The position numbers were made by a program, and so were the translations under genes. Shown one piece after another: positions 4,142-47,000 of a stretch of DNA of 64,000 bases. Source of the stretch: an uncultured Bacteroidales bacterium (lineage in GTDB: Bacteria; Bacteroidota; Bacteroidia; Bacteroidales; JAAYJT01); contig CAYQRU010000001.1 in assembly GCA_964419945.1 (NCBI GenBank), positions 29,441 to 93,440 on the forward strand, in the 5' to 3' direction. How positions within the stretch are numbered: position 1 is the stretch's first letter; every line of letters begins with the position of its first letter. Under the pieces are notes generated by a model. It ran no database searches. It was not told the origin of the DNA and worked only from the letters and a program-made list of their open reading frames with translations.

Positions 4142-4568
4142 ACGATTCTAATATTTTTCAGTGTTAATCAGTGATCTCGAAATGCAGTCAATTAATCAGT
4201 TTCAGGGTGATAACTATATACCTGACATGATACAATATCATATGCTATCAATTGACTGAGCTTTTCCTGTACTTAAAATTGAAGTCAATTTTACCGTTTG
4301 AAACTTATTTTTAATTCTTCCTATGCGGATGGTAAACTAGATAGTGAACCACCCGCCTTTTTGTTATTTGTTAACGAAATGTTAAATTTTTCAGCAGGCT
4401 CAAAATGAAATTACCCCTATACATTGAATATCAGCTTTTTAATATTTTGTTTTAAAAATTATTTAGAAACATTATTAATAACCTATTGTTTACGGCGGTA
4501 TGGTTTAATTACAGGTATTATCACCCCCTTAGTTCTACCGTTTGTCTAACCAAAAAACAAAATCTGTT

Positions 4569-25548: not shown

Positions 25549-28500
25549 ATGAAAAAGATCATTACACTTATGGTCATGGTGGCTTTGGTTATCTCTTCAG
25601 CCATCGCACAAAATCCCTTCGGTAATGGCTCCGATGGAGTTTTGACAGTTAACCTTACCGAAACTATAACTATCAATACTGAGCGGGCTGCAGTTTCTGG
25701 TTATAATCCGGCAGGAAACAATACTATTTTTGTTGACAACCCAAACGGTATTGAAGTCGGCGATGAAGTTCTGATTATTTGTATGACCGATCCCGAAACC
25801 CCCATTGCGGAGAATATTGTGGGACAATGGGAAACACACTATGTTTCAGCCAGTGGATTTAATTTTATTGTACTTGAAACACCCCTGGTCAATTCTTACA
25901 ATGCCGCAAGCGGAAAGAAACACCAGGTGGTAAAAATTCCAAATTACACTCTGGTAGAAGTTAATGGTACCCTTACGTGTCCTGCATGGGACGGTAGTAG
26001 CGGTGGGATTTTATTTTTCAGGGCAAGCCAGGAAGTGGAAGTTTATGCTACCGGCATTATCACTTCCACCGGAAAAGGCTACCTAGGAGGCAGTCAGTTT
26101 GGAGATGGTCATGGTGGAGGCCAGGGAGGTGAAAGTTTTACAGGCTCAGGTGGTTATGGCGGGCATTCTTATGATCCTCATGGAAAAACCGGAGCCGCAG
26201 GTGGAGGTGCTTATTATGCGAACAAGAATGGTGGACATGCCATTTCGGGTGGCGGTGGCGGTTCTACCGGAGGAAGTATTGGTCTTGGCTCAACAAATAC
26301 AGGCGGAGCCGGTGGTGGCGGTGGCGGGCATACCGGAAGTGGCGGTGGTGCGGGTTATGGTACTTCCGGCTTTGGCGGCAATAGCTATAATAATAGCAAT
26401 AATGGACAAAACGGGGGTGAAAATTATTCAGGAAATGGTGGCAGCAATTACACCGGTGGCGGAGGCGGAGGCGGTGGAACTTATGGTTCAGCCGAACTCA
26501 GCAGACTTTTTCAGGGTTGCGGTGGTGGTTGTGGTGGCCGTCATGATGGATATACTCCTGGTTTTGGCGGTGCTGGAGGCGGATTACTTTATATCTCAGC
26601 AAGTGCTGTTGAATGTGCCGGAATCATTGTTTCTGCAGGTGGAAATGGAGGTAATGGTACGACATATTGCGGCGGCGGTGGCGGAGGAGCAGGGGGCTCA
26701 TTGTTGATTCAGGCTGTGGACATGAACCTGTCTAATAGTATCAGCACAGCCGGAGGGACCGGCGGAAGCAGCTATTATGGCAATAATGGGGGAAATGGTG
26801 GTAACGGACGCATCAGATTGAATTACTTCAATCTGGTTAATACCGGAACAATTACCCCCGATCCTTACATCAGCCAATTTGCTGCAAATATATTCCATCA
26901 TCCTCTCGTAAATACCAGTAACATCACCGGCCCCTATACAGTGTCGGCTTTAATTTATGATAATGAAGGTGATCCCATTACTTCAGCAAGCATTTATTAC
27001 AGGATAAATGGTGGAGCATTTTCACAGATCGTAATGAGCGAGAATAAAAACCTTCAGTCTTTTACAGGCAATATTCCAGGTCAGGTAGCTAATTCAACCA
27101 TCGAATATTATTTAAATGCTACTGATGGTACTGATATTTACACACTTCCACTGAGTGCCCCGGATGATCTTTTCAGTTTCCAGATTACCGGCCTTCCGGT
27201 CAGTGCATTTTCAGTAACTGATAACAACAACGGCACTGTCAGCCTCAACTGGAGAGAACCTTTGGAGATGACCTTCTTTACACATTACAGCATTTACCGC
27301 AGCGAGCAGGATGGATTCATTCCCAATTCGTTTAACCGCCTGGACAATAATATCACTGATACTACATATCTCGATATTACTGCTCAGGATTTTCATACCT
27401 ATTATTATGTTATTTCAGCCAACTTTAATTTCGGTGGAACAGTGGTTGAAGCGTTTTCAAATCAGTTATCGCTTCTGGTCAGTAACACAAGCCAAACCAC
27501 CGTACTCGGATATGCTTTTCTTGAGGACAGGAGTAACCATGCAAACATTAAGGTTAAATTTTTACCCCTCTCACCCAGCGCAGTTGCCGACAGCATTTAC
27601 ACCAACGCACTCGGATATTTCGAGTCACATAATATACTGCCTGGTATTTATACCATCATACTGAGCAAAACTGGCTTTCAAACTACTTATATCCGGGAGA
27701 ATTTGCTTATTCTCCAGGACACAGACCTTGGAGAATCAACTATTTATGATATGGGCACCACTGTTTCGGGCAATGTGTCAGGAAACTGGGAAGGTTTTTA
27801 CAGTGTTTCCGGAAACATTACCATTCCACAGGGGGACTCACTTATTATTGGTGCAGGAACAAAAATCCGTTTTCTAGGAGACTATGCTATGATTGTCTAC
27901 GGATACCTTGCCTGTAATGGTGCTGAAGGTGATACGGTACTTTTCACCTCAGCCCCGGCAAACCAGAACCAGCAGCCCAACCAATGGCAGCGTATTCGCT
28001 TTTACGACGCTGCCAACGATAATTCATACCTGAAATATACCAAAATTGAATACGCCAATGATGGTTTATACTTCGGATGGAGCGGGGCTTTGGTTGAAAA
28101 CTGCCTGATTCAGCGACATCAACGATATGGCATTTATTTTGAAAACTCTTATGCTGCCGTAATAAAAAATACCACAATAAGGAATCTGGGAGATGATGGA
28201 TTTCATTTGCAGGCATCGTATGTATCAGCCAGGAATGTGAATATATCTGATTACACCCACGAAGGCGCTTACCTGAACAACTACTCAAAACTTACCATCA
28301 GTTCGTCTGTGATACAAACAGGTCAATCAGGTGTTTATCTGGAAAATAGTTCTAATATTCAAGCTGATAGTTGCACCTTCACAGGAAATACTGAAATGGC
28401 ACTGTTTTTTCATTATTGCTATAGCAGGGGAAAAGTTACCAATTGTACAATTATCTCAAATTACAGGGGAATTTACCTGTACCATGTGTCGAGTCCGCAG

Positions 28501-31500
28501 ATTCTTAATAATGTCATAACCCAAAATTCCTGGGTTGGCATTGAATACTACTACGATTGCGATGCCCTTATCAAAGGAAACCAGATCATCAGTAATAATT
28601 ACGGAATTATTTTTAATTCTTCAAGTCATTACTGCGAGACACTGATAACGGGAAACCTGATAGCAAACAATACGGAAGATGGTATTCATAAAAACTCACA
28701 CACGGGTTATGTAACCAATCCTACAATAACCTACAATACCATTGCCGGCAATGGCAGATATGGCATTTATCTCGACAGGCCCGGTACGGAGGTCATCACC
28801 AATAATATTATTGTGAATAATGGCGCATGGGGTGTTTGTAATATTACAGCAGTTGAATCATTCGAAAATAACAATGTGAACGCAAATGCTTCAGGTGCAA
28901 TCTATAATCTTGCCAATATGCCTGTAGCCACATGGAACTTTGTATCAATAAATCCGAATAACAACGCGGTGTGCGATATTTACCGCAATATCAATGAAGA
29001 TCCTGTGTTTATGGGAACCGGATCTGAATTCTACCATCTTCAGGCTGTATCAAAGTGCATAAACGGTGGTACAAGTACCGTTTCAGATCCCGATGGCTCT
29101 ATCTCCGATATTGGCGCCTTCCCCTTTGATTTGGGGAATCCTCACCGGTTGTATACTACAGGAACCGGAGACCAGTATGTTTCGCTCGCCTGGGAGCCGG
29201 TTGGTAACGATTCACTCATTGATTACAATGTTTATTACAGACTTTCAGGGTTAAAAACCGCTTATACCTTTTTCGGGAATACAGCCGATACTGCTATCAA
29301 TGTTACTGGTTTGACCAATAACGAGCTGTACGATTTTACTATAACCGGCAATTATACTGACTATGAATCACCCTATGCACCTGAAGTAAGTGAGAAACCC
29401 GGAATTTCTTCAGCAGATTACGATCCAGGCTCTTTCAGTGTGTTAATCCCCACCGGATCACCCAATGCGGTTGAAAATTTCACCATTACCAATAACGGAA
29501 CAAGGGATCTGCATGTACAATTTGCCGAAGGTAACCCCAACCAGGCTTACGCTTACTTTGACGGCAGTGGCGATTTTGTGAGTTATGGTTACAAGAGTCA
29601 TTTGCAGGGGATGAGTGCGATGACAATGGAATGCTGGATATATCGCCAGAATAACGGCCATTTTGAGTTTATGGGAAAGTATTTCAGAAATTATCAACTG
29701 GCCATCAACAGCGGCCAAAGGGTGCATTTCTATAAAGGATACGGGACCATCAGCAATTATTCTTATCAGGAATGGGATACCTGGTATACAATCAATGCCA
29801 ACCAATGGTATCACATTGCTATGACCTGGCAGGGATCAACCTTGCGGTTGTACGTTAACGGAGCATTAGCCTGGTCAACAAATGATGCAAACTCAAATCC
29901 CATTCCGCTTGATTTTCACCAATACCCTTTTGAATTTGGCCGGAGGTCTGGCGAGAATTCTTATTACTTCCAGGGCCGGCTGGCCGAAGCCCGCATGTGG
30001 AATTATGCCCGCTCACAGGAGGAGATCAACAACAACATGTTTACCTCCCTCACAGGCAATGAAGAAGGTCTTTTAGGGTACTGGCCTCTGAGGGACGACT
30101 TCAATGACTACTCCTCTTACGGGATCAGTGGAACTCCGTATGGTAATGTAAACCTGCAGGCATCCGGAAACCTACCTTTTACCTTGTTTTCGGTTCCGCA
30201 GACTAACTATCAGGTAGCACCCGGACAATCTGAGATTATTCCGATCACCTTTATCAACCGTACTGATGTAAATTCAAAATATTTTACCACCAGATTGTTT
30301 TCCGATGATCCGGCAAAAAGTGATTATGAGATGGAAATCTTCCTTCAGTATGGCGAGATCGTTCCTGCAACCCCGGTATATTTCATCCCTGTGGCAGCTA
30401 CCGGAAAACCATACCCAATCGTAATAAAGGATGCTAAAATTGATGGCCAGACCATCGCCGTTGGCGACGAGATTGGGGTGTTTGACGGGGAGTTATGCGT
30501 TGGGGCAGGTATTTTTAACGGTACATTCAACTTTATCATCACAGCATGGGAAAGTGATCCTGCAAAGAGCCAACCAGGATTTACACCCGGAAATAATATG
30601 TCGTTCAGAATGTATGATACATCTGCCGACCTTGAAACCAACGAAGCAGAAGAGACCTATTTTATTGGCGATGATACCTTCGGTTACGGTTCTTTCTCGG
30701 CATTATCGCTCCTTGCCTCAGTGTTCAATATTCAAAGTGTGCCGGTTACGGGTGGACAGTTCAATCTTGTTTCGTTTAACATGTTTCCACGGTATGCCAA
30801 TGCATGGACAGTTTTCGGAGGTCTGGGCAACTTGCAGATTGTTTACAACGACGATGGCCAGGTACTCATTCCCGCATACAACATCAACACCATTGGTGAT
30901 ATCAATTTTTTAGATGGATTTTATCTTTTCAGCAATCAGAACGAAACCATTGAATACGAAGGCACTTTTATCCGCGCTGAGGACTGGGACATCACTGTGC
31001 AACCTAACAAATGGAACTATATCGCCATGTTGAGCCACAATCCGGTTGCTGTTACTGATGTATTTGCAGGATTGGAGAGCAGCATCAGCATTGTTCAGTC
31101 AGCAACGGGTAATGCCTGGATTCCATCCGAAAGTATTAATACATTGGGCAATATGCAACCCGGGCAAGGATATAAAATTGCCCTTGCGGTACCCAATCCT
31201 GTCACTTTTAGCTATCCTGCTTCAGGCAAATTCAGTCCTGCTTATGTACAAAATGTCTCTGGTCCTTCAGTCAAAGGCAAAGAAATTTCCCATTTTGATT
31301 TTACTGTTACAGGCCTGCCTTATGCAGTGATAGTAAGATTGATACCTGCATCCATTGCACTTTATGGTCTTGAACCCGGTGACGAGATCGGACTTTTTGA
31401 CGGGCAACAGTGCGTTGGAGCAGCTATCTATGAGGGATTTGACCAGTTGCTGATCACCACATGGCAAAAAGACCTGGCTCAGGGATTAAATGGTTATACA

Positions 31501-31923
31501 CCGGGGCATACTATCACTGCGGGAATTTACAGGCAATATTTTGGGTCAGAAACCAGGCATATGCTTAAAAAACCTTCAGGTGCTGTACCAACGTTTGGTG
31601 AGGGCAATTTTGCCAAAGCAGTACTTGATGTTGTGCCTGCAAGCGAAGAACCCATAAATTTCAATATCCAGCCTAATCCATTTAAGAACAATACTCTGAT
31701 AACACTTGGCTTGAATCAGAAGGAATATATTCGGTTAAGCGTTTATGACAATACAGGCCGCATGGTTAAAACCTTTGTCAACGGGCAACTGTCTCCTGAA
31801 ACATACTTTTTCAATTGGTATGGCACCGATGGAATTGGTAATAAATTGCATCCGGGTGTATACTTCATGATAACTGAAACTTCAGGAAGGATCATTACCG
31901 AAAAAGTGATTATTCTGCAATAA
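25549..31923 (+). CDS. 2124-aa secreted mosaic protein. Order: Gly-rich beta-helix-like N-region, Fn3, CarboxypepD_reg-like, right-handed parallel beta-helix (PbH1/NosD-like) repeats, Fn3, LamG, two copies of a ~115-aa module shared with the next gene, T9SS CTD.
   Basis: Signal peptide MKKIITLMVMVALVISSAIAQ. Poly-Gly tracts lie at ~26090-26830. PbH1-like repeats are seen (GIYFENSYAAVIKNTTI, GVYLENSSNIQADSCTF, GIYLYHVSSPQILNNVI, GIIFNSS, GIYLDRPGTEVITNNII). The LamG tail motif is LAEARMWNYARSQEEINNNM. The C-terminus NIQPNPFKNNTLITL...GVYFMITETSG is a T9SS CTD. Confidence 0.85.
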   Translation: MKKIITLMVMVALVISSAIAQNPFGNGSDGVLTVNLTETITINTERAAVSGYNPAGNNTIFVDNPNGIEVGDEVLIICMTDPETPIAENIVGQWETHYVSASGFNFIVLETPLVNSYNAASGKKHQVVKIPNYTLVEVNGTLTCPAWDGSSGGILFFRASQEVEVYATGIITSTGKGYLGGSQFGDGHGGGQGGESFTGSGGYGGHSYDPHGKTGAAGGGAYYANKNGGHAISGGGGGSTGGSIGLGSTNTGGAGGGGGGHTGSGGGAGYGTSGFGGNSYNNSNNGQNGGENYSGNGGSNYTGGGGGGGGTYGSAELSRLFQGCGGGCGGRHDGYTPGFGGAGGGLLYISASAVECAGIIVSAGGNGGNGTTYCGGGGGGAGGSLLIQAVDMNLSNSISTAGGTGGSSYYGNNGGNGGNGRIRLNYFNLVNTGTITPDPYISQFAANIFHHPLVNTSNITGPYTVSALIYDNEGDPITSASIYYRINGGAFSQIVMSENKNLQSFTGNIPGQVANSTIEYYLNATDGTDIYTLPLSAPDDLFSFQITGLPVSAFSVTDNNNGTVSLNWREPLEMTFFTHYSIYRSEQDGFIPNSFNRLDNNITDTTYLDITAQDFHTYYYVISANFNFGGTVVEAFSNQLSLLVSNTSQTTVLGYAFLEDRSNHANIKVKFLPLSPSAVADSIYTNALGYFESHNILPGIYTIILSKTGFQTTYIRENLLILQDTDLGESTIYDMGTTVSGNVSGNWEGFYSVSGNITIPQGDSLIIGAGTKIRFLGDYAMIVYGYLACNGAEGDTVLFTSAPANQNQQPNQWQRIRFYDAANDNSYLKYTKIEYANDGLYFGWSGALVENCLIQRHQRYGIYFENSYAAVIKNTTIRNLGDDGFHLQASYVSARNVNISDYTHEGAYLNNYSKLTISSSVIQTGQSGVYLENSSNIQADSCTFTGNTEMALFFHYCYSRGKVTNCTIISNYRGIYLYHVSSPQILNNVITQNSWVGIEYYYDCDALIKGNQIISNNYGIIFNSSSHYCETLITGNLIANNTEDGIHKNSHTGYVTNPTITYNTIAGNGRYGIYLDRPGTEVITNNIIVNNGAWGVCNITAVESFENNNVNANASGAIYNLANMPVATWNFVSINPNNNAVCDIYRNINEDPVFMGTGSEFYHLQAVSKCINGGTSTVSDPDGSISDIGAFPFDLGNPHRLYTTGTGDQYVSLAWEPVGNDSLIDYNVYYRLSGLKTAYTFFGNTADTAINVTGLTNNELYDFTITGNYTDYESPYAPEVSEKPGISSADYDPGSFSVLIPTGSPNAVENFTITNNGTRDLHVQFAEGNPNQAYAYFDGSGDFVSYGYKSHLQGMSAMTMECWIYRQNNGHFEFMGKYFRNYQLAINSGQRVHFYKGYGTISNYSYQEWDTWYTINANQWYHIAMTWQGSTLRLYVNGALAWSTNDANSNPIPLDFHQYPFEFGRRSGENSYYFQGRLAEARMWNYARSQEEINNNMFTSLTGNEEGLLGYWPLRDDFNDYSSYGISGTPYGNVNLQASGNLPFTLFSVPQTNYQVAPGQSEIIPITFINRTDVNSKYFTTRLFSDDPAKSDYEMEIFLQYGEIVPATPVYFIPVAATGKPYPIVIKDAKIDGQTIAVGDEIGVFDGELCVGAGIFNGTFNFIITAWESDPAKSQPGFTPGNNMSFRMYDTSADLETNEAEETYFIGDDTFGYGSFSALSLLASVFNIQSVPVTGGQFNLVSFNMFPRYANAWTVFGGLGNLQIVYNDDGQVLIPAYNINTIGDINFLDGFYLFSNQNETIEYEGTFIRAEDWDITVQPNKWNYIAMLSHNPVAVTDVFAGLESSISIVQSATGNAWIPSESINTLGNMQPGQGYKIALAVPNPVTFSYPASGKFSPAYVQNVSGPSVKGKEISHFDFTVTGLPYAVIVRLIPASIALYGLEPGDEIGLFDGQQCVGAAIYEGFDQLLITTWQKDLAQGLNGYTPGHTITAGIYRQYFGSETRHMLKKPSGAVPTFGEGNFAKAVLDVVPASEEPINFNIQPNPFKNNTLITLGLNQKEYIRLSVYDNTGRMVKTFVNGQLSPETYFFNWYGTDGIGNKLHPGVYFMITETSGRIITEKVIILQ
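31651..31920 (+). other. Type-A T9SS CTD of the 2124-aa protein.
   Basis: PINFNIQPNPFKNNTLITLGLNQKEYIRLSVYDNTGRMV...PGVYFMITETSGRIITEKVIILQ. Confidence 0.85.
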
Positions 31924-32005: not shown

Positions 32006-35000
32006 ATGAATGCAAATAATATCAATATAAAAAACAGGCTGTTAAGCACAATCGTGCTCCTGATGCTTATCGCCGGAGCCCAAACTGCATTTTCACAAAA
32101 TTTTGCACTTAACTTTGATGGGAACGGGGATTTTGTGAATTTTGGAAATCCATCCGGGTTGCAGATTACAGGAAATCAAACCATTGAGATGTGGATTTAT
32201 CCAACTGCTCTGGATGCCAGACGTAACCCGGTGGCAAAAGCTTACGGTGGCGAGGGTACTGTTACGCTCGAAACCGATGGGTCTTTGTCATATTACTATG
32301 GCACCGGCGGTGGAAACAATAATCCTTACCAGGGAATTGGCTCTACCCCGATCCAGGCAAACACCTGGACACATATTGCCATTGTCAGAGACCTGACAAC
32401 CATGCGATTGTACTGGTATATCAACGGTAATCAGGTAGTGCATATTCCTGCGCAGTTTTCCTACGCCCAGAGCAGCACACTTCCTTTTTATATCGGCAGG
32501 GGTTATGTCAGCGATTTTAAAGGGATGATTGATGAGGTTAGAATCTGGAATGTGGCACGCTCTGCCTCAGAAATTGTGGCTTTTAAAAGCGTTGGATTAA
32601 CTGGCTCTGAGTCGGGACTGGCTGCTTACTGGCCTTTTGATGAAGGCAGCGGAACAATCATATCCGACAATACCTCCAGCGGCAACAACGGCACACTAAA
32701 TGGCAATACAGGTTTTGTTGCCAGTACGGCACCCATTATTCCATATCAGCCCGGCGGAGAACCCTTCGAACCAGTTCCACCAACCGGACTGCCTTATACA
32801 ATTGTCCTTTCAAATCTTACTATCAACGGAGAAGATATTTCATATGGTACCCAGATTGCTGTTTTTGACGATGAATTATGTGTAGGAACCACTTTTTATG
32901 ATGGCGAACCCAATCAGAGCCTTATAGCCTGGGAAGCTGATCCGGGTCAGAATCTCGCCGGTTTTACAGCCGGCAACCCCATGTCGTTCAAATTTCATGC
33001 TGCCTGGTATTCCGAACCGGTAAATTTCGACGCAGATGTAACCATCATGAAAGGGGATGGAAATTTCGGTTATGAAACTTTCAGCGTTGTAAATCTGAAT
33101 GCAATCACAACATTGGCTCCTGAAATAATGCTTTCTGCTGAATTGATGAATTTCAATGCGGTTATTGTGAATCAAAGCATTTCACTGCCTCTCGCTTTTG
33201 AAAACACCGGAACGGCAAATCTCTTCATTGGTTCAATGCAAAACAATACAACCTTTTTTACCAGGTCGGCCACCTCATTACTTATTGAGCCCGGTACACG
33301 CGATACCCTTTGGATCACCTTTACCCCTTTATCTGTAACTACTTACAGTGATATTCTGACATTTGTAACTGATGATCCAGGATTGCCTTCGGTAACAATT
33401 CCGCTTCACGGAACCGGGCTGCCGGTGCCAACACCTCAGATCACAGTTACACCTTTGAACCTGAATTTTGGCAGCATTGCCATGAATACATCCAAAACAA
33501 TGGTGATTAATATTTTAAATTCCGGAAACGGTAATTTATTGATTACCAATGTCACTTCATCCAATACAGCGTTTTCTGTATTGGGAAATACTGCCTTTTC
33601 GCTGGGGCAAAATGAAAATATCAATGTTGCCATGTCATTTGCGCCTGTGCAGGCCGGGGCTTACACCGGGCAGCTTACAATTCAGAGCAACGCACAGAAT
33701 ATAACGGTTCCGCTGTCCGGTATCGCTTTGCAGGGGCACTTCAGTGTTGTGTCTCCCACCGGAAAACCCTATGCTGTTATTGTCGAAAATGTTGATATTG
33801 ATGGCTTTAGCCCGCTTACTACCGATGAGGTAGCTGTTTTTGACGGAGAACTTTGTGTGGGAGTCGGTTCGTACGCTCAAGGCGGCAACAGCCTTCAGTT
33901 GAGTGGTAATGGTTATGTGATAAACAATAATTCCAACGCTTTTGATCTGCAGCAACTCACGATATCCGCATGGGTATATTCTTCCAATTTCAATCAAAAT
34001 GGGTTCGTATTTGAAAAAGGACCTGTAAACAGTCAGTATTCTTTGTTTTTTGAAGGCAGCAACATCAATTTCAGAACCTATCACACATCAGGCGGTTACG
34101 ACGATTTTTATCTGAACTGGTCTTCGATAGGAATTCAAAACAACAAATGGAATCACATCACAGCCACCTATGATGGTGTTCATAAACGTATGTATGTCAA
34201 CGGTCAGTTGAAAGCTATATTAAGTTACAACAAGACGCTGCGTACAGGTCAGGTAGGCCAGATCATTGGTGCTTACGGTGGTTCCGGTTCGAATTCTTAC
34301 TTCTTCAATGGAAATATTGATGAGGTCAGGGTTTGGAATCATGCGCGTTCGGTTTTTCAAATACAAAAGGAAATGTACCGGCAATTGGTTGGAAATGAAC
34401 CCGGACTGGTTGGCTACTGGAACTTTAACGATGGTAACATCAATAACCTTGTAGCAGGTTCAACACCTTCCTATCTTTCAGGTAATGCAAACACTCAGGG
34501 AATACAAAATATTGAAATTCTGACAAAATTAATGATTACTGCCTGGGAAAAGGATTTGCAACTGGGTTTGCCAGGTTATACTTCTGGCAATCCAATGAGT
34601 TTTAAGGTTTGGACTGAGGTTTACGATAATTGGGTAGAGGTCGAAACTATTCCGGAATATATTGTTGGTGATGGCAATTTTGGCTTCGGACAGTTGAGTA
34701 TCGTAAATCTCGAAGGGACTTCAGGATTGCAACCTGATATAGATGTAGCAGTTGAAAATATTTATGTGGGGCAGGTAACTGTTGGCTCGAGCGTCCAGAG
34801 TATTTTGCAGGTTACGAATCAGGGGAATGCTCCGCTTCAGATTTATGTAAGTGATAATTCGGATGTTTTTAGTACCGATATTGGTAACACAACAATTGCT
34901 CCGCTCAGCGCGACAAACATTCAGGTTACTTTTGCACCAGCTACCGCAGGAGGCTATGCAGGACTTTTGACAATCTCAGCCAATGATCCGGACCAACCGA

Positions 35001-38000
35001 CGGTTACTGTGGGGCTAGAAGGTTTTGCACTGCCTGCAGGAGTTGCCAATATTGCAACATCGGTTAACAGCCTGAACTTTGGTAATGTGATCAACGGCAC
35101 ATCCAAAACAGTATCTCTTTTTATTATTAATACAGGAACTTCGGCTCTCACCGTCAGTAATATCACGTCAGGCAATGCTGTTTTTTCTGTTAGTCCGACT
35201 GCGTTTACTTTGCCGAATACCAATGATATACGGGAAGTATTTGTAACATTTCAACCGGGAAACAAAGGTCTTTTCAGTGCTCTGCTGACTATCTCTTCCA
35301 ATGCTCCTCAAAAACAGATAAGCCTTTCAGGAATAGGATTTGACAATCACTTTGGAATTACAGAACCTACCGGAATACCTTACACGATTATCGTTCAGCA
35401 GACAAACCTGCAGGGATCAATCTTACCTGGGGATGAATTATCGGTTTTTGATGGTGGATTGTGCGTAGGCATGGTAAACAGTTTTACCGGATCAAATACG
35501 CAGTCGGTCAGATTTAACGGGAGCAACGCTTATCTCCAGGTTCCGAATACCGCTTCATTGAATCCTGCTGCAATAACAGTTGAATCCTGGGTTAAAACAA
35601 CTGATGGTGGTGCGTCAAGATCCATTCTGAGTAAAACGAATGGTTGTGCCAGTTCTGGATATCTCATGTGGTTGAACCAGAATGGGGTTGGAGCCGGCAA
35701 ACCCGGTTTCTGGGTGGGTGATGGCCCCTGGCTTGATGCAAATGTAACCGTTCACGACGGCCAATGGCACCATATAGCCGGTACTTTCGACGGAACAACT
35801 GCTAGGATCTATGTGGATGGTGTGTTGAGCAATTCAAGGGTTTCAACTGAGAACCTCTCGTCTTCCAATGCTTTGCAGATTGGAGGTTCTACCTATTGCG
35901 GAAACTTGCTGAACGGAAATATTGATGAGGTCAAAATCTGGAATTATGTCCTTACACCTCAACAGGTTCAGCAATCTATGAACAGCATTCCACAGGCAAA
36001 TTCAGCAGGTCTCGTTGGATATTGGCCGTTTGAAGGAGATTTCGACGATAAATCGCTCAGTAATCACCACACACAGGTACTGGGATCACCGGTTTTTGAA
36101 ATCATTGCCCCTCAACTGCTTAATGAACTTGAAATGATTATCGTTGCCTGGCAGGCCGATCCCGGCAACAATCTTCCGGGATATACTCCCGGTAATCCCA
36201 TGTCATTCAAATTATGGACTGGCATAAATGGTTTCCCGACCGAGTTAACTGCATCGGCAAATTATATAATTGGTGATGGTACTTTTGGTTTTGGGCAATT
36301 CTCGATCGTGAACCTGGATTTTAACCTTCCTGCAATTAATGTTGATCCGGAAGAAATTTTTGTTGCCCTGGCCGAGCCTGACTCAACAGAAGTTACCCTC
36401 ACAATATACAATACCGGAACCGGTGACCTGCGGTTCAGCTTACCTGATCCATTCACCAACGGAAAGTTCAGGGCTTCTTATTATTACAGTCCCGGCACCG
36501 GGGCATCACCGAACTTTGGAACTTTCATGTTTGAGATTGATGACGAATATATTGATAGTAGCTGGGGAAATGGTGGACCCGGTAACGGTGTTGGCAACGA
36601 CGATTTTCAGATAAAATGGATAGGTAAGATATATGCTGAAAGTGCCGGAAATTACCAGTTCAGAAGCTACACGGATGATGGGCTGAGATTATATATTGAC
36701 GGGCAGCCCGTTATTAATCAATGGTATGACATGGCTACAACGAATCACTATGGCACGGTTAGCCTTTCCCAGGGTTTTCATGATCTCGAATTTCATTATT
36801 ATGAAAATGGTGGATGGGCTGATGCCTATCTGTACTGGACCCCACCCGGTCAGGCAGAAGAACTGGTTCCTGCAGCAAATCAAAGTTGGATGAGTATCTC
36901 ACCCTCATCGGGTATAATCGCTCCTGCTCAGTATGTTGAAATTACAATCTCCTTTAATTCCACCGGCTTGATAGATGGTTTATACGCTGCTGATTTGTTG
37001 ATTGTCAACAACACTTCCACACAATCACCGCTTGTTGTTCCGACCCTCATGAATGTTACGGGCACTCCTCAGATCTCATCATCTTTACCTGAAGTAAATT
37101 TTGGCCAGGTGGTTGTAAACAGTACGTTGGAAAAGAGTTTGAATATTATGAATATCGGTACCCAGGCTCTTATCATACAGGATATTTTTGTTCAGGATGA
37201 GATAAACAGCGGATTTACTTACCAATTGAATGATAAATCTTTTCCTTTAAGCATTGATCCGGGGCAATCCATTGTTACTGTTATTGCTTTTACACCTTTA
37301 TTGCCCGGTGAAGTAAATGATACCCTGATGATATTATCAAATGCCGGGAATGCTGAAACCTATTTAATTCCACTGTCGGGTTCAGGGATCACCCCACCTG
37401 AGATTTTTCTGACCGAAACTGTTTTTGAGTTATCCTATGTATGCAATGACCAGTTCACCGATTCTCTGAAAATATTCAATTTCGGCCAGGACACTTTAAG
37501 TGTTAGCATGAGTTCTGATCAAACCTGGCTTGCTACTAATCCCGTTCAGGCTCATATTGCCGGCGGTGACAGTATCAGTGTTACAATACACATTTCAACA
37601 CTTGATTTATTTGCGGGTGTTCATGAAGCTTTCCTGAGTATCCAGTCGAATGACCCCGGCCAGCCACTCCTGGAAGTGTTATGCACATTAACGGTTACAG
37701 GCGATCCAGCCATCCTTTGCAACGATTTTCTGAACATGGGCTCAGCAAACATTGGCGATACTTTAGTGGGTCAACTGACAGTAGCTAACAGCGGTTGCGA
37801 TGTACTCGAAGTATTTTCGGTTGGGATTCAAAGCCAGTTTCCGGTATTTTCGGTGCTGAATCCTGCTTTTGAGGTGCAGCCTGGTGATGCAGCTATTTTG
37901 CAGATCGCTTTCGTTCCATTGGCTTCAAATCAGTATAATGCCATCATCACCATCAACACCAACGATCCGGCAACTCCGGCTTTTGATGTTGTTGTATCGG

Positions 38001-41000
38001 CAACGGGGATTGAACCTCCAAAACTATCAGTTATTCCACAGAATATATCAGAAATATTACAGTCAGGCACTACCGGACAGGAATCTTTCAGCGTTAAAAA
38101 CACAGGTGGCCAGGTGCTTGAATTCAGTACTGTCAAAGATCCGGTAAATCCTTTTATGCTCCACCTCGATGGCAATGGCGATTATATCAATGTTGTGCAT
38201 GCTCCGGCGCTGAATCCCACTCAGGAGATAACACTTGAAGCATGGATTTACCTGATTGATAATGTGAACGAATTCATAATAGGGAAGGAAAATTCAACCG
38301 AGGGCAAATACCGTCTTTTGGTGAACAGCAGCAGTCGCCTGGAGTTCAAACTTAACAATCTGCATGTTATCACTTCAAACACTGTTGTCGTTAAAAATCA
38401 GTGGTATCATGTGGCAGCGACCTTTGACGGATCTACCATGCGGATTTTCATCAATGGTGTTCAGGATGTTGTTCAAACATTTGACCCGTTCACCATCGAG
38501 CCCAATACGGATAACCTCCGGATTGGAAGGTCATACCAGTTTCACTACTTCTATGGCAGGATTGATGAGATTAGGATATGGAGCATTGCCAGAAATCAAT
38601 CAGAAATTCAAAGCGCTATGTACCAGCATCTACTGGGTTCCGAACCTGAATTGCTGTTGTATTTCCCTATTCTGAACTTAACCGGAAGTATTGTTACTGA
38701 TGCTTCAAACAATCCGCATAACGGAATTTTGTTTGGCAATCCGGTAATATTGGGTGCAACTGTTCCATTTACAGATTATCTCACAATCTCAAACGGAAAC
38801 GGAAACCTGACTGCCAACCAGCAGCAAAATGTACTGCTCAGTTTGGGTACCGCCGGGTATTTTGCACGCAACTATCAAAGGCAGCTTTCTGTGAGCAGCA
38901 ATGCCGTCATTAACCCGGTGCAGCAGGTTACGCTTGACTTTACCATTGAAGGAAGCAGCAATATTGTTCCCAATCCTGCACAGATTACCTTTGAGGATAC
39001 TTATATAGGATTAATGGACACTTTGGAACTCATTCTTCCAAATTCAGGCGCAATGGCCGCCGGCATAACTGAAATATCGTTCAGCTCTCCGGTTTTTTCT
39101 GCGCCTGTTCCGGTCAGCAAGGTTTTCCCGTTTTCACAACGTACACTGCTGATTGTTTTTGAACCCCAACTGGTGCAGTTGTATGAAGCAACTCTGACCA
39201 TATCAACCTCAGACGGGAAATCACAACAGATTGAAATTCCTCTCACTGGTTTAGGTCTTAGTCCGCCTGTACCTGATTTTTCACCGGTTGCTGCAAACTT
39301 TGGTCAGGTTGTCATAAACAACACAAGTGTTGTTGGGATCACTCTGTCCAATCTGGGCAATCCACCTTTGGAAGTTTATTCTTATTCATTTTCTGATCCT
39401 GCTTACTTCAGCAGTGACCTGGCGGTTCCTTTCGCATTGAATTTTGAACAGCAGGTGCAGTTTAATGTTTCGTTTACCCCACTTAATTATAATGCTATCA
39501 GTGAATCAATGGTTTTCAATACCAATGTGGGTCAGGTCAGTCTTCCTCTCAGCGGTACGGGAACACCACCGGATCATGATCTTGCAATCACACAGATTAT
39601 ATCTCCGCAAAGCGGATGCGGATTAAGTGCTTCAGAAATAGTAACTGTAAGAATAAGAAATTTCGGGATGCTTCCGCAAAACAATTTTGATGTCGCATAT
39701 TCACTGAATAATGGCGCTGATGTTGTTGAAACGGTGAATCAAACCATTCTATCCGGCGATGTACTTAATTATATATTTTCCCAAACCCTTGATCTTGCTG
39801 TGACAGGAGGTTATGGACTGCGTGCATTCACAATGCTGGGATCAGATCAAAACAAAGCAAATGATACATTAAGTGTCACCATCACCAATTCACCATCAGT
39901 AGGCATGATAAGTGATATGTTGCCGCCTGACAGCACATTCAGTGTTTCAGAACCTGTGGTGTTTTCATGGAATCCTGCGGCAAATGCCACTTTTTATGAT
40001 CTCTACCTCTGGCGCACCAACCAGCAGAAGCCCTCAATACCCACAGTTTCAGGTATTACAGCAACTACATACACCTACCTTGATTACCTGAATAAGAATT
40101 ATCTGTATAAGTGGCAGATTGTAGCCCGCAACCAGTGCTCGCAGAGCTTAAGCCCAATCCATGTATTCTCATTCAATGTTTTCAGCGATCTTATGGTTAC
40201 CTCTGTTGACGCTCCGGTCACGGCAACTTCAGGGCAGCCGGTAAACATCTCCTGGAATGTTAAAAATTTCGGAACGGGCGGTACGGGCATCATACCCTGG
40301 AAAGATGATGTGTACCTTTCGCCATCAACATTCTTTGATGTGAATACGGCCGTAAAAGTAGCTTCGCTGAGTAATCTGTCGGCACTGGTACAAGGTCAGA
40401 GTTATACCAATACGACAACCATTACGCTCGATCCATATCTGAATGGAAATCACTATGTATTTGTGCGAACTGACGTTAACAACACCATACAGGAGGTGAA
40501 CGAGAACAACAATATACAGCGCACAGAGAATCCAATGCTCGTCAGCCTGCCGCCTTATCCTGACCTTGCTGTTGGCAACATACAGTCGCTGGGTGGAAAC
40601 ATTATCCCGGGTCAGCAACTGACTGTTGGCTGGACTGTTGGAAATACCGGCGATGCTTCAGCTATTGGAGGTTGGAGCCAGCGTGTGGCGATTGTGTCAG
40701 ACGCACAGACATATGTTCTTGGTTTTGTTCAGAGCATTGAAAGCCTCGATCCACTTGTTGAGTTGAACCTTAGCTCCACCTTTATGGTACCCCATCAGTT
40801 GGGAATGGACGGGGAAGTATATCTGCAGGTTCGGATCACACCAAATCCTGCACTAATTGAGAAGCCCAATGCAACAGCTAACAACACAGCATTGAGCAAT
40901 CAGGGAGTATTGCTTGAACAGCGACTTTTCCTGTCTCTGCCACAGCCAACGCTTCCTGAAAACGCCGGCTCACCCATACAATGCATAGTCAACAGGAGCG

Positions 41001-44000
41001 GAAGCAGGGCAAGTGCACTGAGTGTGAGTTTTGATGTTTCTCAGGAGAACAGAATTACCATTCCGGCTTCAGCGATTATTCCGGCAAACCAGGCAGGAGC
41101 TGCTTTTCAGGTCGCTGCAATCAACAACACCTGGATAGAAGGAAACATTGATGTGGTAATAACGGCTTCAGCCGCCGGCCATCCTGATGCTATTGCAAAT
41201 CTTGCTGTTATTGACGATGAGGTACCTTCGCTAAACTTGAATTTGAGCGTTGGCAGCGCAAACGAAGGTGATACCTTCCAACTGACACTTACAAGGGATG
41301 TGGTTTCGGCCAATCCTTTGAATGTTATGCTGTCTGTCAGCAAGGCCAATCAACTTGTATTACCTGCCAGCATGACAATTCCTGCCAATGAGGCTTCGGC
41401 AGTTATGTCGGTTGAGGTGATAAACAACAGCACACCTGAACTTACTGAGGCTGTTGCCATCAATGCCTCAGCGGTTGGATTTATACCTGCCACTGCAAAT
41501 ATTACCATTCTTGACGAGGATATACCGCAGCTTTCACTCACCATTATTCCCTCTGTGGTTTCTGAAGGAGCTGGCCCTTATGCTTCCTGGGCAACACTGC
41601 AATTGAATTCTCCTGTCATTGCCAATCTTATTGTGGTTATTTCTGCCGAAACAGCAGGCCAGCTATTCTTTCCCTCATCTGTAAGCTTTGCTCCGGGGCA
41701 AATTCAGAAGCAGTTCAATATCGGGGTGGTTGACAATGGAATACTCGATGGTGACAGAACTGTCGCTGTGACGGCTGCTGTGTTTATTTCGTCATGCAAT
41801 TGTGGCGCTCCCCCCGAAACCGGAGGAGCTGATACTCAAAATATTAACATACTTGATAACGATGGTTTGTCGCTTTCGGTAAATTCAACGCCATTTTTGG
41901 TACCTGAAAATCAAACTAACGCAGGATTGCTCACCATCACGAGAAATACAACTGGAGGCCCGCCAATCGCTGTAAATATTCAGCATAATGGCCCAAATGA
42001 AATATTGCTGCCGTCTTCTGCTGTGATTCCTGAAGGAGCTACTTCCGTGAATGTTCCGTTCAGCACACTCGATGATGGGATCAGCGATGGCGATCAGGTC
42101 GTTACAATTTCTGTTACATCCCCCGATTTTACTCCCGGATCGTGTTGGATCATTGTTACTGACAAAAACCTGCCTGATTATGTTGCTCAGGAGCTTACCT
42201 TATCGCAGGCTGAAATCCTTATCAATGATTCTGTGGGTATGAGCATTTGGATCGCAAACAAGGGCTTTGCCCCGGCACCCGCCAACGCCGAAGTCAGGTT
42301 TTACAGATCAGCCAACAACCACCTCGATAACAGCGATCTTTTAATTGCAACCCAAAACATCCCGGCTATTCTGAATTTAGGCGACTCCGTCCAGATTGGA
42401 GCATTCTATAAACCAGTGGATGTTGTGGGCAATTTCTTTATCATTGCATCGGTAAACATGAACGGGACAATTACCGAATTGATCGGGATTAATAATACCT
42501 CATCCGCAGTGCCATTTGCTATCCTTCCCGATTATACAGCTACGGCCTCAGTAGCTGGCGATGTTTTCAACGGCACTGCGCCCATTATCATCACCGGCAC
42601 CACACAAACCGTAACCAGAGGTCCGGTACCCAACAAGGCTGTGGATGTTTACGTGGTTGTTAACGGTACCCGGCGCGTGCTTAATGCGGTAAGTGATCAG
42701 AATGGGACATTCAGTTTGAATTTTATTCCATTGAACGGCGAAGGAGGTGCATACCATGTTGGTGCCTGCTATCCGGGTCAGAATCTGGATGTGGCACAGG
42801 ATGAATTCACAATCCTTGCTGCCCGGCACAATGCTTCAGGTTATATTATCTGGAATATGTGGCTAAACGAAACAAGGGATTTTACACTTGAATTAATGAA
42901 TATCAGCCCGCTCGGACTGAACAATCTTCAACTCGAGGTATTATCTGGCCCCCCTGGTTGTATAGTAAATTTTACACCTTTGAGCTTACTTCCTGGCAAC
43001 GCGACAGCTCTGTTGAATTATTCCGTAACCGCTACTGAAGTTACAACCGGTACGCTCTATGAAGAAGTTAAACTGCAACTTACCAGTGCGGAAGGCACTA
43101 AATTCAGGTTCAGTGCCTGGTTTTTCAGCCAGGCAACCATGGGAAACCTGAAACTTACTCCTGCCTCTCTAAACAAGGCAATGGTCACAAATGCCATCAA
43201 TTATGCTGAATTTGAAATACTCAATAACGGTTTGGCTGAAACCGGGCAAATAACCATTCAATTGCCTCAGGCCAACTGGCTTTCCCTGGCCAGCCCCCCA
43301 ACCATTGAATCACTCATGCCCGGGCAAAAAGCGATAGTAACGCTCAAACTCATGCCCGGCAGCGATTTGCAACTGAATAATCCGATCAGTGGTCAGATTG
43401 CTTTATCCGGTACGAACTCAAACAGTGTTCTGTTACCCTTTTTATTCGAACCCGTTTCGCTTGAAACCGGCAACCTGCTGGTGGATGTGGTGGATGAGTA
43501 CACATACAACACTGTCGCTGCACCCCATTTGCAGGGTGCAACGGTGACGCTGTCGCATCCTTACAGCGGTCAGGTGATTGCACAGGGTATAACAGATGAG
43601 AACGGGCATTTTCTTGCAGAAGGTATCTATGAAGGTACTTATATGTTGCATGTGCAGGCTCCGCAACATGCCAGCTATCAGAATATCGTTTTTATTGAAA
43701 AGGGTGTAACCAGGACTCAACTGGTGTTCATCGCATTCCAGGCTATTACGTATACCTGGCAGGTAGTTCCTACCTTGATTCAGGATCAGTATGAAATAAA
43801 ATTAATCACTGTTTTTGAAACCAATGTACCCGCTCCGGTGGTTGAGATGAACATGCCGGATACACTCCCTCAACTGGGTGTTGGAGAGGTATTTCCATTC
43901 CTCCTCACGCTTACAAACCGCGGGTTGATCACCGCACAGGATGTAGAGATAACATTTCCGGATGATGAGGAATATATGTTTATCGCCAATGTCAATACCC

Positions 44001-47000
44001 TTGACATTCTTCCCAACACATCCGTTCAGATACCTGTTCTCATGAAGCGAAAACCTGATGTAAAATTATCAGGTCGCAGCCTTAATTGCACCGACATAAC
44101 AATTACGAAATACAAATTTGAGTGCGGTCCCGACAACCAGATGCGGGTAGTGGCTGCCTGGAGTATTTATCTTGGCAGGGTTTGTTCAGGTCCGGGTGGA
44201 CCGTCAATACCCTTTTATTGGCCAGTTTTTCCAGGTGGAGGAGGGGTGGGTCCCGGAGGACCCGGTGGAGGTTCTGGCCCGGGATGGGGCCCGGGTTTAG
44301 GACCTTCAACTCCTTACCAAAGCAGCAATACCGGGTGCGATCCATGTATTGCCGAAGCTTTAAACTGTGCACTTGACTGCATTAATCCCATTCCTCCCGT
44401 TCTCGACTGCGGTGCAGATGTATATGCCAATGGCCTGAATTGGTCCAATGGCATTTCGTGTTTCTGGGGACTTGTTGACACCTTCTCAGGTGGATCATTT
44501 GGCTGTGCCTGGTGTATCGGCACAACCATTGGTTGTTTCATCAACCAGGCAATCGGCAATACCAAAGCTGCAGCAGGAAGCCGATATCCTGCCGAACTTG
44601 AGCAGGCATTTGAGGATATGGAAATGCTCGACAAAGCTTTTACTGCCATTGAAAATGCCGCAAAAGAAACCTGCGGGAACGATGATCTGGTTGTCAGGGA
44701 ATTTTTTGGTTCGTTTAAAGATTCAGTTGCACAATATATTGATACTGAAACCCCGATCAATCTTCAGGCACAAAACGATTTGCTGATTTATTTTGCCGGC
44801 AGTGATATTACTGAATCAGAAATTCTTGATTTCATCACTTACTGGAACACCACGCTTCAGGCCCGCGCACTCGGCGTGTACTCTCCATCTCCGGAGTTTC
44901 CTCATATCATTGACACACTTCTGCTGCATCATTATCAATTGCAGCTCGACACAGTAATCCAGTACACAAAAGCCCGGGGTTATAATTCTATTGACCAACT
45001 GTATAATCAAGCAGCAGAAATTTATGCCGGCTATTTACAGGCAAAAAATTCGGCTGTTTGCGCCACAGTAACAGTAGAGTTTTCTCAAACCCTGACAATG
45101 ACCCGGGAAGCCTTTGAGGGAACACTGACCATCTTTAATGGCCATGAAACCGATGCCATGGAAAACATTATGCTTGCACTCGAGATTAAGGATGAAGATG
45201 GAGCAATCAAAAACGATCTGTTCCAGATAAATACGAAATCACTCAATCAAATATCCGGAATTGATGGCTCAGGTATTTTGGAAGCTCTTACTGAGGGTAC
45301 GGCGGTAATTACTTTTATTCCTGAAAGGGGAGCCGCTCCTGATGTACCAAAGTACTATTCCTTTGGCGGAACACTGTCTTACCTCGATCCGTTTACAGGC
45401 GAGATTTTTGAACAACAACTGTTTCCGGTTACACTTCAGATTAATCCAAGTCCTGACCTGTATATTGATTATTTTATGCAGCGTGATATTTTAGGTGACG
45501 ATGCTCTCACACCTGATATCGAGCCCATGGTTCCAGCTGAACTCGCGGTGATGATTGATAACAGGGGAACAGGAACTGCGTATAGCGTAAATATCGAATC
45601 TGCCCAACCCAGAATCATTGAAAATGAAAAAGGACTGCTGATTGATTTTCAGATCGTTGGATCAAACCTGAGTGGAAAACCCAGGCAACTTGGTTTACTG
45701 AATGTTGACTTTGGAGATATTCCTGGTGGCGAAATTGCCATAGGCCAGTGGTGGTTTACGAGTACGTTGCTCGGGCACTTTATTTCTTATGAAGTGTCAA
45801 TCAACCACCTGAACAGTTTTGGAAATCCTGATTTGAGTCTTGTAAGCAGCGTGCAGGTACATGAATTGATCAGGGGCGTAAGTGTGTACGGGCCACCTGA
45901 CGACAGCATCAGCGATTTTCTGGTTAATGATATACCTGATACGCATGACATCCCCGACGCATTATATTATTCGAACGGCGCCATTGCCCAGGTTTATCAG
46001 GCAACTGCATCGCAAACCGATGGCCAGGTCAATATGAGCAACCTGGAAATCCAGCTCACAGTTACACCTTTTACAATGGGATGGAATTACACCAAACTGA
46101 ACGATCCGGGCAACGGACTTTTCCGGATTATCAGTTGCACCCGCCAGGATGGCCAGGTCATCCCACTTGATAATATCTGGCTTACCCACGTTACCATTCC
46201 TGACGGCGGGGAACCGGTTTATGAGAACAAACTGCATTTCCTCGACTACTTTAGCTCGACGGTTCCTTATAGTTATACTGTTGTTTTTGAACCGGGAAAT
46301 CTTGATGTGCCCGAAGTAGTTGCCATCACTGGAATTCCTGCCGGAATCACTGACACACCGGTTATAAATATTGAGGTGGTATTCAATAAGCCCATTGACC
46401 CAGCAACCTTCGACTACGAAGATATGGTACTCAGTAACCAGGGAGGTCCAAACATGATGGACAACTCGGTGATCGTTTCACAGGTTAATGATACTGTTTT
46501 CAATGTGGATATTTCTACCAAAACCACAGCCAACGGTTTTTATGCACTTACCGTTCAGGCAGCCGGCATCGCTGATCTGATGGGTAACTTTGGCCAGGTG
46601 GGAAAACAGGTTACCTGGGTTCAGGCACTGTCAACTCCTGCCATAGTTCTCTTTATCGGACTGCCGGAGGACGGACATCCCATTGATTCGCTTCTTGTTA
46701 TGTTTAACATGCCAATTAATCCGGCCACCTTCACAACAGCTCAGCTGGTATTGACCGGACCTGACGGAATACTAATTCCTGCTGAATCATTGGTGATTTC
46801 GGACGCAAGTATCAACAACATGTTGTTTAAGATCAGCGGATTACTTCCTCTCACATCAGATGATGGTAATTATCAGCTTTTATTTAAACTCACAGAGATT
46901 CAGGGCGAGAATGGAGTAAGTGGCTTGCTTGACCAGCCAGCACAATGGACAGTTTGCCAGGTACCGCCGCCCGCTGCCAATGCAGGGGAAAATGCCACTA

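Follow-up and report, generated by a model that had tools for sequence, protein, structure and literature searches.

The split immunoglobulin (Ig)-like domains of type I secretion system (T1SS) RTX adhesins, such as MpIBP, FrhA and AhLap, project ligand-binding domains (PMC12077191, PMC10865825, bioRxiv 10.1101/2025.09.30.679566). In these adhesins the ligand-binding domain has its termini next to each other and its binding site in a distal position (PMC12077191, PMC10865825), and the projected carbohydrate-binding modules are highly variable (bioRxiv 10.1101/2025.09.30.679566). Here we describe a comparable organization in a giant surface protein of the type IX secretion system (T9SS), in which Laminin_G_3 (LamG) domains are nested in a loop of a host module of about 110 amino acids (aa). 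The protein is encoded in a stretch of 64,000 nucleotides (nt) from an uncultured Bacteroidales bacterium (assembly GCA_964419945.1, contig CAYQRU010000001.1, positions 29,441 to 93,440). This whole stretch is called the window, and all coordinates given below refer to it.

As in the RTX adhesins, a beta-sandwich stalk domain of the window protein is discontinuous in sequence, a whole domain buds off before the chain resumes and completes the host, and the split units are spaced by ordinary Ig-like extenders within a giant fibrillar surface protein. The budding domain is lectin-like or carbohydrate-binding in the RTX adhesins and a Laminin_G_3 domain in the window protein. However, the window protein belongs to the T9SS and ends in a Por_Secre_tail domain, whereas the RTX adhesins are T1SS proteins with an RTX beta-roll and a secretion signal at the C-terminus and a retention module at the N-terminus; the window protein lacks the beta-roll and the retention module, and no RTX repeats were found in it by Pfam. 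The host of the window protein belongs to an uncatalogued family, and that of the RTX adhesins is a BIg extender. In addition, the window module is split after the third of its seven strands, and in the RTX domains the split follows strand 1 or precedes the last two, and the nested units lie near the N-terminus in the former, while the ligand-binding region of the latter is near the C-terminus. The window protein family also presents documented polymorphism, in both presence or absence and type, at an orthologous slot. By analogy, the window protein would work like the RTX split-domain adhesins without being a member of their family. The inserts themselves score far above the Pfam threshold and their model matches the folds of Laminin_G_3 or ConA-like lectins (PF13385), pentraxins and the LamG of PAPP-A but, unlike usual Laminin_G_3 domains, they are nested in the loop of another domain. 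We found no description in the literature of T9SS proteins with a LamG nested inside a host domain.

Domain-in-domain organization of the modules

The protein and its module, LamG and Ig-like regions, together with the two module copies of the upstream open reading frame (ORF), are the following (evidence in brackets).

32006..48787, + strand: giant T9SS-secreted surface protein of 5,593 aa (ORF and Pfam)
30385..30717, + strand: U1, uninterrupted copy of the module, in the upstream ORF of 2,124 aa (alignment, hidden Markov model (HMM))
31294..31641, + strand: U2, the other uninterrupted copy of the module in that upstream ORF (alignment, HMM)
32093..32725, + strand: LamG0, N-terminal LamG, aa 30-240, in tandem before M1 and not nested (Pfam Laminin_G_3)
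32768..33103, + strand: M1, intact, uninserted host module of ~110 aa, aa 255-366 (alignment, HMM, AlphaFold2 (AF2) model)
33104..33745, + strand: Ig-like pair a, of ASH/HYDIN/Cep192 type, aa 367-580 (Pfam)
33746..33886, + strand: N-half of M2, strands 1-3 and loop start, aa 581-627 (alignment, BLAST, AF2 model)
33887..34525, + strand: LamG cassette in M2, aa 628-840, with the Pfam core at aa 633-787 followed by a structured return linker (Pfam, AF2 model)
34526..34714, + strand: C-half of M2, strands 4-7, aa 841-903 (alignment, BLAST, AF2 model)
34715..35359, + strand: Ig-like pair b, aa 904-1118 (Pfam)
35360..35485, + strand: N-half of M3, aa 1119-1160 (alignment, BLAST)
35486..36133, + strand: LamG cassette in M3, aa 1161-1376, with the Pfam core at aa 1171-1322, polymorphic in syntenic loci (Pfam, locus comparison)
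36134..36319, + strand: C-half of M3, aa 1377-1438 (alignment, BLAST)

Modules alternate with Ig-like pairs in the giant protein, giving a [module - Ig - Ig] repeat order, and a six-frame HMM scan identified exactly five module copies in the window. The original prediction held that a LamG is inserted, twice, in a loop of a module of ~115 aa, and both its coordinates and its quoted peptides were accurate. When the five copies were aligned, the N-halves and C-halves of M2 and M3 were colinear with the intact M1, U1 and U2, with 17 invariant columns, among them the motifs T-G-x-P-Y, F-D, C-V-G and W. Independently of the profile, pairwise BLAST gave identities with M1 of 45% and 43% for the N- and C-halves of M2 and of 47% and 48% for those of M3, with E-values from 1e-9 to 3e-18, and identities of 50-55% between the halves of M2 and M3. 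M2 and M3 are interrupted at the same point, HMM positions ~45-51, and the nested units span 33746-34714 and 35360-36319, respectively. The inserts, of ~213-216 aa, are complete Laminin_G_3 domains (PF13385), with Pfam scores of 88.7 bits in M2 and 112.6 bits in M3 against a cutoff of 27.6. Successive VFDGxLCVG-coding motifs lie 975 nt apart between M1 and M2 and 1,608 nt apart between M2 and M3, and the difference of 633 nt equals one LamG. Furthermore, inserted and uninserted states were both present in the family: among its 150 best representatives there were ~26 interrupted and ~457 uninterrupted module copies, and in all 26 nested copies the break was at HMM positions ~42-50. The only other expansion of the loop between strands 3 and 4 in these top 150 members was one of ~20-35 aa in P0103, and no non-LamG domain was found inserted there.

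Structure prediction led to the same conclusion. The intact module was modelled by AF2 as an all-beta domain, with a predicted local distance difference test (pLDDT) of 95 and seven strands (residues 9-19, 29-34, 37-43, 50-56, 71-80, 83-95 and 105-111). The M2 unit, modelled by AlphaFold2 from an alignment of 26 sequences of nested units (pLDDT 91, predicted template modelling score (pTM) 0.78), retained all seven host strands, three in the N-half (9-19, 29-34 and 37-43) and four in the C-half (263-269, 286-293, 296-308 and 318-324), so that the insertion site is a six-residue turn between the consecutive host strands 3 and 4. The middle of the nested model is a jelly roll, matched by Foldseek with probability 1.0 to 4dqa, PAPP-A, PTX3, CRP and BoNT Hc (E 3e-10 to 4e-7), and the linkers from LamG back to the host were predicted to be structured. 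A fixed geometry of LamG on its host is plausible, the pTM and the structured linker strands of the model being consistent with it. In covariation studies by mean-field direct coupling analysis (DCA; 332 module copies, effective number of sequences (Meff) ~326), the strongest couplings cross the turn between strands 3 and 4 (41-50, 43-49 and 42-51), and couplings between the N-half and the C-half were also detected (19-87/88 and 23-80/81).

The flanks of the LamG are not recognised by Pfam and could, for this reason alone, be regarded as two small independent domains on either side of it in a tandem architecture, or the whole arrangement as an assembly artefact. However, the three strands of the N-half and the four of the C-half together account for all the strands of the intact module, contiguous copies number in the hundreds, some orthologous alleles are contiguous too, and the same nested unit is in frame in nine independent assemblies of metagenome-assembled genomes (MAGs). 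We give practically no credence to either version, and colinearity together with the uninserted orthologues led us to discard them. All these data support a true domain-in-domain insertion instead of two small flanking domains.

Two metagenomic proteins present a peculiarity at this boundary. P0012 (aa 89-179; matched against L001 6106-6378) and P0013 share a stretch of 91 aa, 100% identical, that covers the C-half of the module. Directly upstream of it the two have nothing in common: P0013 has a LamG tail and P0012 a sequence ending in ...NESWGIDNFSCV, with no Pfam match. P0012 is on a contig of 666 nt; it may have another inserted domain, or its contig may be chimeric.

The host module family

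The host module gave no match in Pfam at E≤10 apart from a spurious one of 0.05, and no Big match either. It had no match in NCBIfam and no relative at E≤1 among the PDB sequences. Fold comparison gave at best E=0.03 and a template modelling (TM) score of 0.44 with the PDB, and E=4.6e-3 with TM 0.41 with BFVD. The best but weak fold matches of the host were Gram-positive pilins (RrgB) and CnaB or transthyretin-like sandwiches (TM 0.38-0.44, E≥0.03), where a TM above 0.5 would be convincing. The module has no sequence relationship with RrgB or CnaB, and isopeptide or sortase features were not evident in it. In RrgB, one sandwich domain is inserted in another.

When 1.84 billion cluster representatives (clusters at 50% identity) were searched exhaustively with the profile, 3,087 proteins matched at E≤1e-3, 1,245 of them at E≤1e-10, and up to 15 module stretches were matched in a single protein. 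Homologue searches with short-domain queries covered proteins of up to ~1.7 times the query length, so that multi-domain giants were missed and counts from these searches understate the size of the family. Among its members are proteins of ~150 aa, for example P0004 and P0007, which consist of a signal peptide and the module alone. The module is therefore an autonomous fold. On the basis of the models, it would be a seven-stranded all-beta building block of extracellular proteins. As a family of ~3,000 clusters at 50% identity, with neither a Pfam nor a PDB entry and with a confident model, it is a candidate for curation.

Variation of the LamG inserts

The giant homologues with nested copies share a common N-terminal plan (LamG0 - M - Ig-Ig - M::LamG - Ig-Ig - M::LamG - ...), and we refer to the loops of M1, M2 and M3 as slots 0, 1 and 2. 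Slot 0 is never filled across the family. Slot 1 is filled in the homologues except P0056 and P0062, where it is empty, and slot 2 is empty in P0042, P0046, P0057, P0058 and L007 and filled in the others. A scan of one genome per species, seeded with four close nested sequences, identified nine syntenic loci (L002-L010) from independent Bacteroidales and Lentimicrobiaceae MAG projects, in which the whole M2 unit is in frame at 55-74% identity; these relatives also give the window its taxonomic placement. Conservation among these loci extends to the upstream gene and the flanking segments, and M1, both Ig pairs, the M2 halves, the M2 LamG and the M3 halves are 46-79% identical to those of the window. 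The M3 LamG behaves differently, being of the same type as in the window in four of the nine loci (63-71% identity in L005, L006 and L008; by alignment in L004), of an unrelated type in another four (only 28-32% in L002, L003, L009 and L010), and absent from L007. The slot-2 loop of L007 reads CVGMASIGDSLSNQDVAIIAW, in frame and on a contig of 272 kb. A further homologous giant gene with nested units, at 900-7700 of L001 (JGI 3300042985, contig Ga0453631_0006), is frameshifted into many short ORFs, as a result of either a pseudogene or an error-prone assembly.

The original prediction had also proposed that the nested unit was itself duplicated. Part of this claim holds. The hosts of M2 and M3 are 53% identical to each other and only 41-44% identical to M1, and Ig pairs a and b are 35% identical, which indicates that a [module + Ig-Ig] unit was duplicated; in the host tree, moreover, the slot-1 and slot-2 modules cluster apart from those of slot 0. 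An ancient duplication of that unit is therefore real. From this, and from the interruption of M2 and M3 at the same loop, it could be argued that a single ancestral insertion produced a module::LamG unit that was then duplicated in tandem, the present LamGs being its diverged descendants. However, the LamGs of M2 and M3 are only 27% identical, which is the background level, as any pair of LamGs from the three neighbouring genes is 27-35% identical. The M2 LamG is 50-56% identical to stand-alone LamGs of unrelated, non-nested proteins, and M2-type LamGs without host halves were found in other Bacteroidota (L011-L018). The slots also vary in content among orthologues, some of them being empty, and their LamG types do not follow the backbone tree. 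The duplication of a nested unit is thus unlikely as the source of the present inserts, and it may describe at most a distant origin.

The subtype to which the M2 LamG belongs is recognised by the motif NFNQNGF[IV]FEKGPVN.QYSLFFEG. Outside this family it is 41-55% identical to LamGs in P0186, P0187, P0191 and P0206, unrelated proteins in which the LamG is fused to a prepilin-type N-terminal methylation motif (PF07963). This hints that the subtype has spread widely between protein contexts.

The second explanation considered was that the LamGs were never exchanged, the types having arisen by fast divergence in place under diversifying selection and the empty slots by simple deletion. Surface-exposed binding domains often evolve fast, and the L007 loop keeps an L-S-N-Q motif that resembles the end of the type-A return linker, as a deletion would leave it. 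Nevertheless, clustering of 37 nested units at ≥45% identity gave 18 LamG types, and one of them is in N-terminal tandem position in the window (LamG0) and in P0039 and nested in slot 1 of P0049 and slot 2 of P0047, with 58-67% identity among these different positions of different proteins, while orthologues of the same slot may be below 32%. In addition, on the neighbour-joining (NJ) tree of the backbone, built from 864 gap-free columns upstream of M3, the LamGs of type A and type B in M3 are intermingled. The clades of this tree join L003 (type B) with L005 (type A) with 97.5% bootstrap and L007 (none) with L008 (type A) with 100%, and the latter pair with L009 (type B) with 99.5%. L003 and L009 have backbones 59% identical and LamGs 78% identical, and L003 and L005 backbones 73% identical and LamGs 37% identical. 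Divergence in place is for these reasons very improbable.

The pattern suggests that the LamG is an exchangeable cassette: among orthologues, host halves and flanks descend together, and the LamG of a given slot is replaced by unrelated types or missing. The M3 host halves partly co-segregate with the type of LamG, and this suggests that the exchanged tracts have their ends in the conserved flanks; homologous recombination through these flanks would be the most likely route of exchange.

Proposed organization of the surface fibre

The [module - Ig - Ig] repeats would form part of an extended surface fibre. In the proposed arrangement the chain would exit the host after strand 3, build the LamG, come back through the structured linker, finish strands 4-7 and enter the next Ig pair. 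Because it is grafted between two consecutive host strands, the LamG would have its entry and its exit at a single point of the host, and it should consequently hang off the side of the fibre and not transmit tension along it. The LamG would be a side branch of the chain of stalk domains and not a link in it. In LG/LNS domains ligands usually bind on the face opposite the termini, and the nested LamGs may be ligand-binding, the ligand probably being a glycan. Swapping a LamG by recombination between conserved flanks could alter binding specificity or antigenicity and leave the stalk undisturbed.

We consider it likely that this explanation is correct as a whole, that is, that an autonomous all-beta host is split, projects a LamG laterally and has had this LamG exchanged among orthologues. 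The T9SS sorting domain, PA14, CARDB and Ig arrays of the giant protein provide an adhesin context for it, and the split domains of RTX adhesins a precedent for the design. Several points weigh against this explanation. No flanking DNA repeats were found at the cassette junctions, the cassettes have no anomaly in G+C content or in that of third codon positions (GC3), and the window contains no close donor, all its other LamGs being ≤35% identical. The trees are NJ trees of MAG-derived sequences, and some of the orthologues could be paralogues. The reassembly of the host halves and the orientation of the LamG rest on secondary structure, pLDDT and pTM and not on superposition, and the DCA signal at the turn between strands 3 and 4, which comes partly from loop-length gaps in a shallow alignment, is supportive only. 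Finally, LamG domains can be purely structural, and ligand binding by the nested ones is something that we infer.

A broader proposal, which we advance tentatively and hold to be rather less probable than its alternatives, is that the turn between strands 3 and 4 is a maintained docking slot and that Lentimicrobiaceae-like Bacteroidales shuffle at least 18 LamG types between slots, genes and lineages, reprogramming in this way the binding of T9SS mega-adhesins. If the proposal were true, the RTX split-domain system would have its counterpart in the T9SS, with a new fold and with recombination-driven variation of cassettes built in.

The interest of the locus is moderate and rests on the uncatalogued host family, on the presence of the split-domain rule in T9SS adhesins and on the gain, loss and replacement of cassettes at one loop. 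The rule, recently used for locating binding domains in giant adhesins, would be extended from T1SS RTX adhesins to T9SS giant proteins of uncultured Bacteroidales, where it permits likely binding heads to be picked from sequence alone. The conserved host halves with their polymorphic LamG contents also provide a natural case in which a loop accepts the grafting of whole domains, which may be useful for protein engineering and for the study of how the specificity of surface proteins diversifies.

The giant protein and its gene neighbourhood

Two further features of the giant protein were located by Pfam.

36536..36871, + strand: PA14 domain, directly after the third module unit (Pfam)
48563..48778, + strand: T9SS C-terminal sorting domain, Por_Secre_tail (Pfam)

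According to Pfam, the 5,593-aa protein contains four Laminin_G_3 domains, many Ig-like domains of the ASH/HYDIN/Cep192 type, PA14, CARDB and others. Its N-terminus, MNANNINIKNRLLSTIVLLMLIAGAQTAFSQ, is hydrophobic and signal-peptide-like as judged by eye, without a predictor. The Por_Secre_tail (PF18962) at its C-terminus, with 49 bits against a cutoff of 27, identifies it as T9SS cargo.

The gene is the last of five that encode large secreted surface proteins in succession on the + strand (window 5-48787), of ≥1,378, 6,020, 744, 2,124 and 5,593 aa, at least three of which carry a Por_Secre_tail; housekeeping genes come after them. The upstream ORF with U1 and U2 (25549-31923, 2,124 aa) is a T9SS protein with beta-helix, fn3 and LamG domains, and before its beta-helix there is a glycine-rich tract of GGxGG-type repeats (aa ~175-430, window 26071-26830) without a Pfam match. 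At least 12 LamG domains were counted across three adjacent genes, none of them more than 35% identical to another.

Dockerin-like C-termini were observed in two window proteins, 22709-24943 (+) and 50311-52437 (-), which is unusual beside T9SS cargo in a Bacteroidales-like genome. Dockerin_1 scored 21.5 bits in Pfam with the first of them, slightly below the cutoff of 22.9, and the second was judged by eye only. P0010, a member of the module family, also has a dockerin (PF00404).

Two other regions of the giant ORF were noted. At aa ~4062-4190 (44189-44570), a cysteine-rich stretch comes after a segment rich in Gly and Pro (GPGGPS...GGGGVGPGGPGGGSGPGWGPG), with no family match. At aa 5337-5485 (48014-48460), just ahead of the T9SS sorting domain, there are two tandem repeats of ~75 aa with the consensus LQN...ISLAG[DN]GT.FI....AEF.AGK...THV.AGA.A.FRIETG..FC.

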